Shown one piece after another: positions 56,066 to 62,411 of a DNA stretch of 64,000 nt (the first letter of the stretch is position 1; each line of letters begins with the position of its first letter). Source of the stretch: Waterburya sp. Its GTDB lineage: Bacteria; Cyanobacteriota; Cyanobacteriia; Cyanobacteriales; Xenococcaceae. The translations under genes were made by a program, and so were the position numbers. The DNA lies in assembly GCA_965217895.1 (NCBI GenBank), contig CBDCJV010000002.1, positions 4,640,001 through 4,704,000 of the forward strand, written 5' to 3'. The notes below the pieces were generated by a model. It worked only from the letters and a program-made list of their open reading frames with translations. It ran no database searches and was not told the DNA's origin.

Positions 56066-56650
56066 TCATCCTTTTAAAGCCATATCTGGTTGCTCTACCT
56101 GAGCTAATTTTTCTTTATTCTGACGACGTTTTTTAGCATAAAGCTGGATACTCGCCACCATAGCTAATACCAAACCTGCTATTAGCCAAGTAGTTAAATC
56201 TAAAGGTAAACTGTTTTTAAATACTGCCAAAAGAACAATTAAGACCAAAAGTATTGTTGGTGCTTCATTTAAAGCTCTAAACTGTTGTCCTGTCCAGCCA
56301 CATTCTCCAGCAGCTAATTGCTTCATTATTCTCTTGCAGAAAAAATGATAGCCAATCAGCAAAAGCACAAAAGTTAATTTAATATGCAGCCAAGTAGATT
56401 TGAGAATTTCTGGTTCAGTAGAAATTAAGCCGATCGCCATGACTACAGTTACAATCATTCCTGGAGTGGTAATGATGCCGTAAAGACGTTTCTCCATTAG
56501 CTCGTATTGCTTGGTAAGAATGCTACGAGCAGGTTCGCTTTCTTGTTCTGCTTCTGCGTGATAAACAAACAGTCGCACAAGATAAAATAAGCCTGCAAAC
56601 CACACCACTACACCAATTAAGTGAAATGCTTTAAACCAGTAATAAGCCAT
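56066..56650 (-). CDS. hemJ: Protoporphyrinogen oxidase HemJ
   Basis: WFKAFHLIGVVVWFAGLFYLVRLFVYHAE, MEKRL, FRALNEAPT. Confidence 0.95.
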   Translation of the reverse strand: MAYYWFKAFHLIGVVVWFAGLFYLVRLFVYHAEAEQESEPARSILTKQYELMEKRLYGIITTPGMIVTVVMAIGLISTEPEILKSTWLHIKLTFVLLLIGYHFFCKRIMKQLAAGECGWTGQQFRALNEAPTILLVLIVLLAVFKNSLPLDLTTWLIAGLVLAMVASIQLYAKKRRQNKEKLAQVEQPDMALKG

Positions 56651-56765: not shown

Positions 56766-57113
56766 CGGGACTGGCCAGATTTGAACTGGCGACCTAGCGC
56801 TTCAGATTGGTGTGAGTTTCCCCACTCTCTGGACTATCCCTTCACCCTGGGTAAATTACCTTTAGGCGGTGGCCGTTATGTTGTAGGCTAATTTAGATAA
56901 ATTTAGCTCTTTGCTCTTTCCTGATTTTAGACCTACAACCAGTCTCTGCACCTTCTCTACCAGGAACTATAGAGCTTGGCTCAAGATTACCGTGGTTGTA
57001 AATAACCACAACTTTAGGCTTCCTTGAATTTGACCACATTCATAAATGAAGTTTCCTTCACCATGCCCGATTTTTCAGGAGGCGCTTGCTCTATCCTACT
57101 GAGCCACAGCCCC
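56766..57113 (-). tRNA. trnR: tRNA-Arg(CCU) interrupted by a group I intron
   Basis: Exon 1 57113-57077 GGGGCTGTGGCTCAGTAGGATAGAGCAAGCGCCTCCT plus exon 2 56802-56766 AAGCGCTAGGTCGCCAGTTCAAATCTGGCCAGTCCCG give a 74-nt cloverleaf with anticodon CCT. Confidence 0.93.
56803..57076 (-). ncRNA. Group I self-splicing intron (IC3-like), 274 nt, no ORF
   Basis: P1 CCU|GA-AAAA-UCGGG with U-G at the splice site; core AAUUCAAGGAAGCC, AAUCUUGAGCCAAG, GUGCAGAGACU, AAGGGAUAGUCC; terminal G. Confidence 0.92.
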
Positions 57114-57300: not shown

Positions 57301-57564
57301 TTGACTTATTTAACATTATTAGCAGCAACAGTACCCAACACCGTATCCTGGAGTCCTAAAGTGGCTATTGTGATGATTGTTTGTAATATAGCTGCGATCG
57401 CTTTTGGTAAGTTTACCATCAAAAATAAAAGTGCTGGACCTGCCTTGCCTTCTCCAGCCTTATTTGGCGGCATGGGACTACCTGCACTGTTAGGTACTAC
57501 TAGTTTCGGTCATCTTTTAGGTGCAGGGGTGATTTTAGGCTTGGCTAATGCTGGCGCACTTTAA
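57301..57564 (+). CDS. psaK: Photosystem I reaction centre subunit PsaK
   Basis: WSPKVAIVMIVCN, LLGTTSFGHLLGAGVILGLAN; TTG start with AGGAG RBS. Confidence 0.93.
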   Translation: MTYLTLLAATVPNTVSWSPKVAIVMIVCNIAAIAFGKFTIKNKSAGPALPSPALFGGMGLPALLGTTSFGHLLGAGVILGLANAGAL

Positions 57565-58052: not shown

Positions 58053-61000
58053 ATGTTACATAAAAGAAATAATTCTGTAATTACATTAGCTGTACTATTG
58101 GCTTTGGTCGGAGTATCAAAACCAGCAAAGGCTTTCCTTTTGGCTCAAGCTGATGAAGTTAAAACAACTTTTACTCTTCCCGATCAACTTCCTAAGAATG
58201 CCACAGTAAAAGTGGCAGCCTCTAATAGTATTAATAGCATTGACCAAGGATTAAAAAAAAGTTTTACGGAAAAATATCCTAATGCAAAAGTTAACATCAA
58301 AACCCAAAGCTCGGACGAGGCTTTAAACGCTGTAGCAGCAGGAAAAACTGACATAGCAGCAATTGGCAGATCTTTAACTGAAGCAGAAAAAGGCAAGGGA
58401 TTAATTGCAGTTCCTGTAAGTCGAGAAAAAATCGCGATCGTCGTTTCTAAAAATAACCCTTACAGTGGCAATTTAAGCTTCACTCAATTTGCTCAGATAT
58501 TTAAAGGAGAAATTACAGACTGGTCTGAAGTGGGCGGAGATCCTGGTGCTATTAAGCTAGTAGACTTACCAGATAGCAACGATACAAGAAGAGCTTTTCC
58601 TAACTATTCAATTTTCCAAGATGGAGAATTGGCGACGGGATCTAATGCCGTAAAAGTAGATCGAGACAACATTGACGCAATGGTTAGTCAGTTAGGTAAT
58701 AACGGTATTAGTTATGCAGTGGCAGATGATGTGATCGATAGAGATGATATCAAGGTAGTATCGATGCACCAGACTCAGCCTGACGATCCTCGGTATCCTT
58801 TTTCTCAACCTTTTAATTTAGTATATCAGGGAACTCCCAGTGAAGCTACCCAAGCTTTCTTGGGTTTTGCCACTACCAAAGAAGGACAAAAGACAATTGC
58901 TAGTAGAGTAGGTTCTATTCCTGCAACCACAGCAGCAGCAACCGCGATCGCGCCTAATCTAGGCAATAAGACACCTAGAGCAACTCTTGCTACTGCCGAT
59001 TCTTCAGCCAATGGCAATGGCGATGTTAAAAACAAAGTGGCTCAAGCTAACGGCGATGCTAATGCTGGCATTGCGTTAGCTGACGGCAATGCCGATACAA
59101 AAGACAAGATTGCTCAAGCTGATGGCAATACTCCGACACAGACAAATCCTAATTTAGAAGGTAGTGGTACAGCTAGCACCGATTTAGAAGATAGTGGTAC
59201 AGTCAATCCTAATTTAAAAGGTAGTGGCACAGCTAACACCGATTTAGAAGATAGTGGTACAGCCAATCCTAATTTGAAAGGTAGTGGTACAGCTAATACC
59301 GATTTAGAAGGTAGTGGTACAGCCAATCCCGAATTTCAAGACAGTGGCGTAGTTAATTCTGATGTAAAAGAAAGCGGTGAAGTTAATCCTGATGTAAAAG
59401 AAAGCGGTGCAGCTAACATTGATGCAATTGCTCAAGCAGATGCCAATCCAAACGCAGCAGATGCGGAAAATGCTCAGGGTGAGGCGAGCGCTACAAAAAA
59501 GGGTAATTGGTGGTGGTGGATACCTTTAATAATAGGATTACCACTTTTAGGATTACTGGGTATGTCCTCTTTAAAACGTGGAAACAGAAGCGATCGAGAA
59601 CCTGCTATCGGCAATACTCCTTCACCTAACGATCCTCAAGGAGGCAGTGTTGCCTTCGATCCAGATATTGATGGTGTATCAGCTAGAGGAACGACTGCAA
59701 CCAGTGATTTGGGAACAACCTCTAACTTAGAAGGTGCTGCCATAGCAACTGGAGGAGCAGCATTAGCAGGAGGTGCAGCAGCTACTAATAGAATAGGCGA
59801 TCGCCATAATCAAAATATTGAAGATGTTGATACCGATGAGGTTGAGTTAGAAAATGCGGTTGCTCAACCAGAAACTGATATCGATAATCTTATAGTTGAA
59901 ATACCTCCCGATCCCGTAAATGAATTTACAACAGATCAAGAAACAAAATTACAAACTACTGAACAGTCAACAAGACTACAGGTAGATGATACAAATGATT
60001 CTTCTGGTTTACTTGACAATGTATCGGCAACTGGTGCAGCCTTAGGAGGCAGCGCAGCAGCGGCTTCTGGATTTTTTGGCGATCGAGAAGATTCTGTTGA
60101 AGAAACTACAGAGTCATTGGCAGAAGATAATGACATCACCTACGCTCAACCTGATTATATTGATGATCGATCAAGAAGATCGCAGGTTGATGAACCAGAT
60201 TACTCTGAAGCCAATGCTAATTTTGATCGAGCAACCGAAGAAGATACTGCCTTTGAGACTGAAAATGCTAGAGAGTTTAGAGGTGATTATGTCCTCAGAG
60301 AAGAAATTCCAAATGAAGAAATCAGTTCAGAAATCGAAGAGGACGATACAACAGCTATTGGAGACAGCAATTGGGTAGACAGCACCACTAACGATTGGAA
60401 TGCACCAGACAGCACAGTCTCAAGTTCTATAGATAATACCGTCACTACTGATAATGATTTAGATCTAGATTTATCAGAGGATGAAGATACAAGCTTTGAG
60501 CAAACATCAGGTTTTGCCAATGATGCGACTCAGACTGAAGGCGCGACAGCAGGAGGAGCAGCCCTTGGTGGTGCAGCAGCATCTGGATTTTTCGCTAATC
60601 AAGACAGTGAGCAACCGACGGAAATAGATTCAGAAGACAGCAACTGGGTAGACAGCACCACTAGCGATTGGAATGCACCAGATAGCACAGTCTCAGATTC
60701 TGTAGATAATACCGTCACTACTGATAATGATTTAGATCTAGATTTATCAGAGGATGAAGATACAAGCTTTGAGCAAACATCAGGTTTTGCCAATGATGCG
60801 ACTCAGACTGAAGGCGCGACAGCAGGAGGAGCAGCCCTTGGTGGTGCAGCAGCATCTGGATTTTTCGCTAATCAAGACAGTGAGCAACCGACGGAAATAG
60901 ATTCAGAAGACAGCAACTGGGTAGACAGCACCACTAGCGATTGGAATGCACCAGACAGCACAGTCTCAGATTCTGTAGATAATACCGTCACTACTGATAA

Positions 61001-62411
61001 TGATTTAGATCTAGATTTATCAGAGGATGAAGATACAAGCTTTGAGCAAACATCAGGTTTTGCCAATGATGCGACTCAGACTGAAGGCGCGACAGCAGGA
61101 GGAGCAGCCCTTGGTGGTGCAGCAGCATCTGGATTTTTCGCTAATCAAGACAGTGAGCAACCGACGGAAATAGATTCAGAAGACAGCAACTGGGTAGACA
61201 GCACCACTAGCGATTGGAATGCACCAGATAGCACAGTCTCAGATTCTGTAGATAACACCGTCACTACTGATAATGATTTAGATCTAGATTTATCAGAGGA
61301 TGAAGATACAAGCTTTGAGCAAACATCAGGTTTTGCCAATGATGCGACTCAGACTGAAGGCGCGACAGCAGGAGGAGCAGCCCTTGGTGGTGCAGCAGCA
61401 TCTGGATTTTTCGCTAATCAAGACAGTGAGCAACCGACGGAAATAGATTCAGAAGACAGCAACTGGGTAGACAGCACCACTAGCGATTGGAATGCACCAG
61501 ATAGCACAGTTTCAGATTCTGTAGATAATACCGTCACTACTGATAATGATTTGGAGATAGAAGATAGTGATTTTATATTAGACAACAGAATTGACAATGA
61601 CTTTGAAACTAATATTATCGCTGATGCTGAAGTTACTTCTTATGATACGGATCATAGCTTAGATGATCTCGCTAATTCAGACGACATTAGCTTAGACGAG
61701 ATTACCTTTGATGATGCGGATAGTTCGCTTAGTCCTAGTTCAAATGAATTCGCTTTTGATGAGACTACTGACTCAAGCGACATTAGCTTAGACGAGATTA
61801 CCTTTGATGATGCGGATAGTTCGCTTAGTCCTAGTTCAAATGAATTCGCTTTTGATGAGACTGCTGACTCAAGCGACATTAGCTTAGACGAGATTACCTT
61901 TGATGATGCGGATAGTTCGCTTAGTCTTAGTTCAAATGAATTCACTTTTGATGAGACTACAGACTCAAACGACATTAGCTTAGACGAGATTACCCTTGAT
62001 GATGCTGATAACTCCATTGATGATTTAATTAATAGTATTGGTACAGATACTATTAATCAAAGAGTTGATTTAAATGAACTTGGTTTTGACCAAGGATTAG
62101 AGAGAAAAGGCAATTCACCTTCTGATTTATTAAGTGATAAAACCGCGGAAATAGACGACTTAGCCAATGATAAATCTGACGATATGGATAATATTTCTAC
62201 CTGGTTGGACGGATTAGAAACACCCGATCAAAATACCGAAAATATTTCAGAGTGGTTAGAAAATCTTAATGCTGATAGTGCTATTACGGATAACGAAGAA
62301 AGCAGCAATGATAAAAATCTAAGCTCGAATGAGGAAAATGAGGATATTTCATTTCAATTCCTTGAAGATTTATTAGATAGAGATCCAGATGCTAACCAAG
62401 ATAATAAATAG
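58053..62411 (+). CDS. PstS-like periplasmic binding domain fused to a TM helix and a long acidic repeat tail
   Basis: Signal peptide; DIAAIGRSL, IAIVVSKNNP, IFKGEITDWSEVGG; TM WWWWIPLIIGLPLLGLLG; about 940-aa D/E/S-rich tail. Confidence 0.8.
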   Translation: MLHKRNNSVITLAVLLALVGVSKPAKAFLLAQADEVKTTFTLPDQLPKNATVKVAASNSINSIDQGLKKSFTEKYPNAKVNIKTQSSDEALNAVAAGKTDIAAIGRSLTEAEKGKGLIAVPVSREKIAIVVSKNNPYSGNLSFTQFAQIFKGEITDWSEVGGDPGAIKLVDLPDSNDTRRAFPNYSIFQDGELATGSNAVKVDRDNIDAMVSQLGNNGISYAVADDVIDRDDIKVVSMHQTQPDDPRYPFSQPFNLVYQGTPSEATQAFLGFATTKEGQKTIASRVGSIPATTAAATAIAPNLGNKTPRATLATADSSANGNGDVKNKVAQANGDANAGIALADGNADTKDKIAQADGNTPTQTNPNLEGSGTASTDLEDSGTVNPNLKGSGTANTDLEDSGTANPNLKGSGTANTDLEGSGTANPEFQDSGVVNSDVKESGEVNPDVKESGAANIDAIAQADANPNAADAENAQGEASATKKGNWWWWIPLIIGLPLLGLLGMSSLKRGNRSDREPAIGNTPSPNDPQGGSVAFDPDIDGVSARGTTATSDLGTTSNLEGAAIATGGAALAGGAAATNRIGDRHNQNIEDVDTDEVELENAVAQPETDIDNLIVEIPPDPVNEFTTDQETKLQTTEQSTRLQVDDTNDSSGLLDNVSATGAALGGSAAAASGFFGDREDSVEETTESLAEDNDITYAQPDYIDDRSRRSQVDEPDYSEANANFDRATEEDTAFETENAREFRGDYVLREEIPNEEISSEIEEDDTTAIGDSNWVDSTTNDWNAPDSTVSSSIDNTVTTDNDLDLDLSEDEDTSFEQTSGFANDATQTEGATAGGAALGGAAASGFFANQDSEQPTEIDSEDSNWVDSTTSDWNAPDSTVSDSVDNTVTTDNDLDLDLSEDEDTSFEQTSGFANDATQTEGATAGGAALGGAAASGFFANQDSEQPTEIDSEDSNWVDSTTSDWNAPDSTVSDSVDNTVTTDNDLDLDLSEDEDTSFEQTSGFANDATQTEGATAGGAALGGAAASGFFANQDSEQPTEIDSEDSNWVDSTTSDWNAPDSTVSDSVDNTVTTDNDLDLDLSEDEDTSFEQTSGFANDATQTEGATAGGAALGGAAASGFFANQDSEQPTEIDSEDSNWVDSTTSDWNAPDSTVSDSVDNTVTTDNDLEIEDSDFILDNRIDNDFETNIIADAEVTSYDTDHSLDDLANSDDISLDEITFDDADSSLSPSSNEFAFDETTDSSDISLDEITFDDADSSLSPSSNEFAFDETADSSDISLDEITFDDADSSLSLSSNEFTFDETTDSNDISLDEITLDDADNSIDDLINSIGTDTINQRVDLNELGFDQGLERKGNSPSDLLSDKTAEIDDLANDKSDDMDNISTWLDGLETPDQNTENISEWLENLNADSAITDNEESSNDKNLSSNEENEDISFQFLEDLLDRDPDANQDNK
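59145..59420 (+). repeat. 30-bp (10-aa) coding tandem repeats
   Basis: Alternating NPNLKGSGTA / NTDLEDSGTA units, degenerating to NPDVKESG. Confidence 0.85.
60362..61551 (+). repeat. 273-bp (91-aa) near-identical coding tandem repeats, four full copies plus a partial one
   Basis: Unit starts agacagcaa(t/c)tgggtagacagcacc at 60362, 60635, 60908, 61181 and 61454. Confidence 0.95.
61682..62010 (+). repeat. 96-bp (32-aa) coding tandem repeats, three full copies plus a partial one
   Basis: cgacattagcttagacgagattacc at 61682, 61778, 61874 and 61970. Confidence 0.93.

Follow-up and report, generated by a model that had tools for sequence, protein, structure and literature searches.

A group I intron with a predicted P11-like pseudoknot in the tRNA-Arg(CCU) gene of the cyanobacterium Waterburya sp.

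Background

Bacterial tRNA genes harbor four classical types of IC3 introns, one of which, Arg.5Ug, resides in tRNA-Arg(CCU) and is characterized by an insertion site after the anticodon, U at position -1, a terminal G and a compact core; longer introns may hold genes (Williams 2020, 10.1101/2020.01.27.920355). The text of that paper leaves the phyla of Arg.5Ug unstated and mentions neither P7.1, nor P11, nor the nature of the intron ORFs; cyanobacteria are probably counted in its Table 1. The Arg(CCU) introns of Alphaproteobacteria (in Agrobacterium, and BbgpI in Bartonella) share this gene and site, in a host tRNA that likewise went unannotated, and BbgpI splices both in vivo and in vitro (10.1101/2020.08.04.235903). 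The IC3 ribozymes from the Azoarcus tRNA-Ile and the Synechococcus pre-tRNA consist of compact P4-P6 and P3-P9 domains without P5abc, and the models described have no extension between P7 and P3 (PMC4498298). Such an extension, whose loop pairs with an extension of P6, is found in subgroup IA, e.g. in td (P7.1/7.2, PMC4498298) and in the Candida mtLSU intron, in the cryoEM structure of which P11 joins P7ext to P6 and is cited as a subgroup IA feature (PMC12088405).

The cyanobacterial genes for tRNA-Leu(UAA) and for tRNA-fMet also contain group I introns in the anticodon loop, but these occupy other sites and belong to other lineages (58% mean identity). The homing enzyme of the fMet intron, I-Ssp6803I, represents another nuclease family than the LAGLIDADG proteins discussed below. 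Split tRNA genes of this kind are easily overlooked, as tRNAscan-SE is not designed for such introns (PMC8450103). The parts of the literature that we covered (including PMC11395459, PMC2853384, PMC3610870, PMC12702839 and PMC7902536, but excluding older J. Bacteriol. papers) describe neither cyanobacterial Arg(CCU) introns or their LAGLIDADG and HNH genes, nor P11 in an IC3 tRNA intron. The "group I introns" of 22-49 nt reported in tRNA-Arg(ACG), tRNA-Gly and tRNA-Lys (PMC5733544) are a different claim, and their length rules them out as the element described here.

Results and discussion

Organization of the split tRNA-Arg(CCU) gene

The DNA analyzed here, referred to as the window, is a stretch of 64,000 nucleotides from the genome of Waterburya sp. 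(G000). An earlier note, made from its letters alone, had proposed that two tRNA halves form a 74-nt tRNA-Arg(CCU), cut directly after the anticodon by a 274-nt group I intron that lacks a homing-endonuclease ORF, and that standard tRNA annotation could miss the gene. The locus is organized as follows:

57113-57077, minus strand: exon 1 of tRNA-Arg(CCU), 37 nt, its 3' end formed by the anticodon, with U at -1 (ARAGORN)
57076-56803, minus strand: ORF-less group I intron, 274 nt, 42% GC, terminal G at 56803 (ARAGORN and Rfam)
56802-56766, minus strand: exon 2 of tRNA-Arg, 37 nt, CCA not encoded (ARAGORN)
56066-56650, minus strand: UPF0093 gene, which we take to be hemJ; downstream neighbor, kept across the genus
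57301-57564, plus strand: psaK gene; divergent neighbor, kept across the genus

All these proposals were borne out. The joined exons fold into tRNA-Arg(CCU), and ARAGORN with introns allowed reports the gene as i(38,274); run with default settings, it makes no call of the split gene. The group I covariance model of Rfam (RF00028) matches positions 56810-57089 with 58.7 bits (cut-off 50, E 2.5e-12), and the longest stop-free run in the three sense frames of the intron is 48 codons, i.e. there is no endonuclease ORF. The host gene, the site after the fifth base of the anticodon loop and the U(-1)/G(omega) pair of splice-site residues are those of Arg.5Ug. ARAGORN lists no second tRNA-Arg(CCU) in this genome, in which tRNA-Leu(UAA) and an initiator-type tRNA-Met are both intronless. 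The UPF0093 and psaK neighbors mark the host as a cyanobacterium. A plasmid search gave no match and a phage search gave four, all restricted to exon 1; a promoter and terminator scan returned 0 and 0 (no consensus promoter). Elsewhere in the window, positions 58053-62411 (plus strand) encode a protein of 1452 aa that has a PBP-like substrate-binding domain at its N-terminus and a long acidic tail, within which lie about four near-identical repeats of roughly 75 aa each.

Secondary structure of the intron

We mapped helices P1-P9 on the window's sequence and compared them with 28 aligned relatives (all elements on the minus strand):

57066-57079, minus strand: P1, 5 bp, U-G at the 5' splice site, invariant in 28/28 rows
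57041-57065, minus strand: P2 with GAAA loop, changes on both sides in 6/10 pairs
57032-57037, minus strand: 5' strand of P3, partner 56874-56869
56950-57027, minus strand: P4-P5-P5a-P6-P6a domain (mapping and covariation)
56961-56966, minus strand: L6a loop strand of the predicted P11-like pseudoknot, UUCCUG
56940-56946, minus strand: 5' strand of P7 with a bulged A and the G-binding G-C pair, partner 56836-56831
56880-56939, minus strand: P7.1 extension, 9-bp stem of 56939-56931 with 56888-56880; site of the LAGLIDADG ORF in relatives
56918-56923, minus strand: P7.1 loop strand of the predicted P11-like pseudoknot, CAGGAA
56843-56868, minus strand: P8 (mapping and covariation)
56804-56830, minus strand: P9.0 and a single P9 hairpin with GAAA loop (mapping and covariation)

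In the relatives 95.7% of the cells pair and 31 of the 86 pairs show changes on both sides, a level reached by 0/500 shuffles; slid partners pair in 32-40%, a control over which the mapped structure is favored by its derivation from the window itself. The U-G-containing P1, the core helices, the terminal G and the extra stem all lie at the places given in the earlier note, and the intron has an intact ribozyme core backed by covariation, comprising P3-P7-P8, P4-P5-P6 and the G-binding site in P7. Minimum-energy folding (z -2.7) recovered some of the helices, by a method that cannot show P7 or P11.

The earlier assignment to the IC3 tRNA type was right. The intron is of the IC3 tRNA type and has a compact core, with P2 and P9 present and P5abc absent, which is part of the IC3 feature set; an extension between P7 and P3, absent from the IC3 models, is nevertheless present, and the intron is an IC3-derived variant rather than a typical IC3 member. 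This extension is the extra peripheral stem that had been noticed earlier, now placed as P7.1, with changes on both sides in 7/9 of its pairs. The earlier note had missed two of its properties: relatives carry a LAGLIDADG gene at the position it marks, and L6a is complementary to its loop. The bulge in P7 is an A (56945). A bulged C at this place belongs to the IA-type core, the two subgroups IA and IC differing in this bulge. Introns of subgroup IA with both a P7 extension and P11 are reportedly treated by Jaeger et al. (1991).

A predicted pseudoknot between L6a and P7.1

The complementarity between L6a (56966-56961) and the P7.1 loop (56923-56918) was spotted in the alignment and was analyzed across 165 distinct cyanobacterial introns taken from 190 loci; that these introns agree in their first and last bases is in part a product of the search patterns. 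Of these, 141 were parsed and 24 were left unparsed; the sets compared below were drawn on length after the alignment had been seen, and kin among them are not independent. In the ORF-less set with medium P7.1 and short P6a, 54/56 introns score at least 12, compared with 18% of letter shuffles, and loops paired with their own partner average 14.6 against 11.8 for swapped partners (0/5000). When a single row per loop type was retained, 17/19 still scored at least 12 (0/5000). The sets with small P7.1 and with ORFs remained at chance level, with 3/19 each; in the ORF-bearing introns P11 was sought twice and was not found, a wider test giving p 0.46. The independent pair types (among them UUCCUG/CAGGAA, CCCCG/CGGGG, CUCUG/CAGAG, GCUGU/ACAGC and GCUCC/GGAGC) vary among lineages, with compensatory changes on both strands. 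When the MAFFT alignment is left unadjusted, no more than 68.5% of the cells in the columns of P11 show pairing, because outside the genus the partner shifts by a few bases.

The predicted helix comprises 6-7 bp (about -6 to -8 kcal/mol) and starts 12-19 nt into P7.1. It corresponds to the pairing of a P7 extension with a P6 extension that characterizes subgroup IA1, in our case as judged by covariation, while in Candida the pairing has been solved. The likeness to subgroup IA is likely convergent, given that the core here is that of an IC3-type tRNA intron whose P7 has an A as its bulge. We are fairly confident that this P11-like helix forms and stabilizes the fold; it is predicted that it would staple the P3-P9 domain onto P4-P6. 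P7.1 with its covarying pseudoknot would then be the unusual part of an intron whose host gene and site are ordinary.

P7.1 as the site of a LAGLIDADG gene in relatives

The introns fall into three length classes, 204-358 nt (142 introns), 649-712 nt (3) and 832-969 nt (20), and the 20 members of the longest class carry an ORF of 199-230 aa in P7.1. All four of the encoded proteins tested belong to PF03161 (LAGLIDADG_2), and the one searched against the PDB resembles I-SceI; they form one family (43-92% identical) at one site. The ORF starts just inside the stem, and its last codons cross the 3' strand of P7.1, P3 and P8, i.e. the same bases that are kept in the window's intron. As relatives hold the LAGLIDADG ORF at this exact spot, P7.1 is likely the stump of a lost gene. 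The loop itself contains no ORF remnant: likeness to the ORF-bearing introns ends at the stem and linker, and blastn against them found just four short matches, all outside P7.1, so the direction, loss or insertion, rests on the tree. A mini-ORF of 29 codons across P7.1 was rejected as unselected, being open in only 5/57 relatives. The sole LAGLIDADG-like match in the Waterburya genome is distant (26-30% identity); it is a 233-codon stop-free frame (G000:C2, 2185049-2185747, plus strand) coding for a LAGLIDADG_2-like protein with both acidic motifs kept.

The cyanobacterial tree, rooted on the Chloroflexi-type rows described below, comprises two lineages, I (99/98) and II (96/85). Lineage I, which includes the window's intron, contains all 20 ORF-bearing rows, 23 P11-type rows and 5 rows with small P7.1, intermixed, as well as 4 rows without P7.1. 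The parsed rows of lineage II have no P7.1; three of its introns carry an antisense HNH gene in P5. Resolution inside lineage I is poor (P11-type rows require 8 changes); one mixed pair of ORF-bearing and ORF-less rows, L036 with L050, is supported (99/95). The simplest reading that we infer from this distribution would be a single insertion followed by repeated loss: the intron lineage probably spread earlier by LAGLIDADG homing, and the gene would have been lost several times, with P7.1 left behind because the ORF ends overlap P7.1, P3 and P8. One lineage-I intron with a LAGLIDADG gene (L034, genome G163 of family f7) encodes a protein that groups with one from Oscillatoria (95/94), and the two other f7 rows lie outside lineage I (L037) or are unplaced; this placement hints at homing transfer.

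The proteins themselves may have changed their role. Compared with I-SceI, both catalytic acids are kept in only 1/20 of them (that of L079), and 19/20 lack one or both; the median dN/dS is 0.17 for the 70/190 pairs that are unsaturated. Lost acids and a low dN/dS fit a second job such as that of a maturase, and a route from homing enzyme to maturase has been described (PMC3984707). A bolder, quite tentative extension is a handover from protein to RNA, in which the LAGLIDADG protein would have turned into a splicing helper and then been deleted (in Xenococcaceae, Microcystaceae-type cyanobacteria, Prochloron and diatom endosymbionts), while its leader evolved into the stabilizing P11.

The order of events could also be the reverse, with P7.1 and P11 as an older structural element into whose loop the LAGLIDADG gene was inserted later, destroying the pairing. 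The loop free of any ORF remnant agrees with such an order, a single clade of P11-type rows is not rejected (p 0.30), and loops that already exist are the usual targets of ORF insertion (PMC3984707). P7.1 is, however, lacking in each of the sister lineages (cyanobacterial lineage II, Chloroflexi-type and alpha-type introns), and a single ORF family occupies a single site among mixed ORF-bearing and ORF-less rows, the supported L036-L050 pair included. We therefore regard insertion after P11 as rather unlikely and retain the loss of the LAGLIDADG gene as the preferred reading.

A stable brace or a transient pairing

Of the parsed introns, 40 have no P7.1 and about 20 have a small P7.1 and no P11; with so many relatives devoid of it, the brace is not needed family-wide. 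Together with the helix length of only 6-7 bp, this absence would suit a pairing that is real but transient or alternative, acting as a folding guide or trap, with in-cell splicing dependent on host proteins, such as the chaperones that group I introns often require (PMC3984707). Nevertheless, the predicted helix links the same two elements as P11 in the cryoEM structure, its position is narrow and both its strands are loops outside the core helices, which makes a merely transient role improbable by comparison with the stabilizing P11-like helix.

Occurrence and inheritance

The earlier note had considered tRNA-Arg(CCU) in cyanobacteria a less familiar combination of host and site. Our searches contradict this. 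The intron-containing gene was found in 23/24 other genomes of the genus (22 with the whole gene and 1 with a gene cut by a contig end), and the sole genome without a match is 85% complete. Among 351 genomes of the class, there were 28 matches to the intron junction, one of which (G129) arose by chance, leaving 27; the intronless junction is present in 261, 0/27 have both, and the remainder fit neither pattern. In GTDB at least 119 records contain the intron, 114 of those titled Cyanobacteriota; taxa among the matches listed include Trichodesmium, Planktothrix, Microcoleus, Moorena, Fischerella, Nostoc, Prochloron and diatom endosymbionts. The host/site pair is thus ordinary: it belongs to the known class Arg.5Ug and is common in cyanobacteria. 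One further record, titled Sphingobacterium (L148), has a cyanobacterial-type tRNA-Arg exon and intron and is probably a mis-binned contig.

Within the genus, intron distances correlate with those of hemJ (rho 0.42, 0/2000 permutations, 21/23 loci), a correlation that co-transfer could also give, as hemJ adjoins the intron gene. psaK is the neighbor in 23/23 long parsed loci of family f1, and hemJ in 21 of these. Because the intron tracks hemJ and the psaK/hemJ neighborhood is kept, vertical inheritance within the genus appears very likely. Outside the genus the distribution is patchy, e.g. in g151, where 8 genomes have the intron and 9 do not, so that the intron moves or gets lost. The neighborhood varies as well: psaK lies beside the gene in this genus and several Xenococcaceae, while in many other lineages (loci L033-L340) the gene adjoins a tocopherol cyclase and a DUF218 gene, so that the locus underwent rearrangement while carrying the intron. 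Two genomes show additional matches to exon 1: G003 has a second match, and in G109 (C1, 2026925-2027065) two matches stand 67 bases apart, in an intronless tRNA-Arg(CCU), which suggests a partial tandem duplication or an integration scar.

Relationship to other tRNA introns

A metagenome scan added 119 loci, mostly non-cyanobacterial judging from their exon sequences, by which they were grouped. As each host name depends on a single neighbor protein (Agrobacterium for L173, Tokpelaia for L194, a Chloroflexi bacterium for L209), the label "Chloroflexi-type" is used tentatively here. A first tree, rooted on the thyX intron described below, was uninformative due to long branches; later trees were calculated without L001, L297, L301 and L287 and contain no Ile(CAU) intron. 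In the tree of 140 rows and 196 columns, cyanobacterial and Chloroflexi-type introns, plus one unassigned row, form a branch supported with 99/99, apart from the alpha-type, Leu and fMet introns. Of the named introns placed in our other trees, those closest to the window's intron belong to Pleurocapsaceae records. A second set of 45 rows, partly hand-picked and partly random, also excluded L275, L318 and L211; when the P9 region was removed from it, the support of the Chloroflexi branch fell to 78/68. The AU test on this set rejects a clade of cyanobacterial and alpha-type introns (p 0.0003 with all columns, 0.026 without P9), while on 140 rows the same clade is not rejected (p 0.21); a clade with the Leu introns is not rejected either (p 0.12, 0.39). 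Over the 196 columns, mean identity is 60% to alpha-type, 67% to Chloroflexi-type and 78% to cyanobacterial rows, and the alpha-type introns, probably a separate lineage, differ in their longer 3' domain and the absence of P7.1.

These results bear on the origin proposed earlier, namely horizontal acquisition or reverse splicing. The host gene and site shared with the Agrobacterium type, the 140-row AU test and the patchy presence in other genera such as g151 agree with a recent, isolated gain in this lineage, whether from Alphaproteobacteria or through reverse splicing. Against it speak the presence of the intron in 23/24 genus genomes at a conserved locus, tracking hemJ, the 99/99 branch with Chloroflexi-type rather than Agrobacterium-type introns, the rejection on 45 rows, the lower identity to alpha-type introns and their different 3' domain. 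Judging from these comparisons of sequences, a recent alphaproteobacterial origin is unlikely, and for this genome a recent gain by either route is already largely refuted and seems very improbable; within the genus, vertical inheritance remains the preferred reading.

Other intron-borne nuclease genes

Apart from the LAGLIDADG family, several Arg(CCU) introns (L104:1279-1740, L322:1294-1758 and L328) contain in P5 an antisense gene for a 154-aa zinc-finger HNH protein. The cyanobacterial carriers are Pelatocladus and, according to the NCBI name of one protein, a Leptolyngbya. The gene also occurs in metagenome loci such as L193:1034-1498, and in L209 only its two ends are kept. Proteins from cyanobacterial and Chloroflexi-type introns, encoded at the same spot, are 47-52% identical, which suggests transfer across phyla. 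Our data suggest that a single family of tRNA introns has been invaded by two different nuclease genes, LAGLIDADG at P7.1 and HNH, in antisense orientation, at P5, with the HNH form spanning phyla.

Group I introns were also encountered in other genes. In the Waterburya genome, the thyX gene (locus L001, G000:C2 about 198664-199518, minus strand; RF00028 79.8 bits) has Thy1 on both sides of an intron with a 247-aa HNH_3 ORF that runs into the core; the same arrangement was found in G019 (L298). In locus L301 (G157:C1 about 1153600-1153970) a 302-nt group I intron interrupts a cyanobacterial tRNA-Asn(GUU).

Splicing of the tRNA precursor

In vivo, removal of the intron would almost certainly follow the established chemistry: a free guanosine held in P7 attacks behind the U-G pair of P1, and the exon released in this way attacks behind the terminal G. 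Overall, we consider it likely that this 274-nt group I intron, whose core is intact, excises itself to give the mature tRNA and that its P7.1, the probable stump of a lost LAGLIDADG gene, pairs with L6a and braces the core. Of 24 candidate sequencing runs (RNA holders at shares of at most 0.15), 8 were compared with the locus; the splice joint 56802/57077 was absent from these, all of which are contigs of related organisms. One X1 contig, which runs from exon 1 into a sequence that is like exon 2 but differs from that of this genome, is what an intronless allele in another species would give and was set aside.

Splicing may not be essential for the cell, since AGG is rare, at 6% of the Arg codons in long ORFs (3274/54379, a crude count), and a tRNA-Arg(UCU) is present in this genome. 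That the locus is dispensable or decaying, AGG being read by tRNA-Arg(UCU), would accord with these two facts, with the missing consensus promoter and with the lack of spliced RNA in the relatives' contigs of the 8 runs, but it is hardly credible given the (near) invariance of the exons, of P1 and P7 and of the terminal G next to diverging loops and covarying helices, a pattern that points to selection on splicing.

Conclusions

For cyanobacteria, the host/site pair amounts to a correction of annotation: a tRNA missed by default tools across many members of the phylum. The introns themselves form a naturally occurring series of small, closely related ribozymes that differ in one peripheral module, which may be missing, code for a protein or fold into a pseudoknot. 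If the handover from protein to RNA were true, an IC3 ribozyme would have reinvented the brace of subgroup IA, with every stage still alive (no arm, arm with protein, small arm, arm with pseudoknot). With this series, the gain of peripheral braces by group I introns can be tested directly, as can the idea that a maturase may be replaced by RNA structure.
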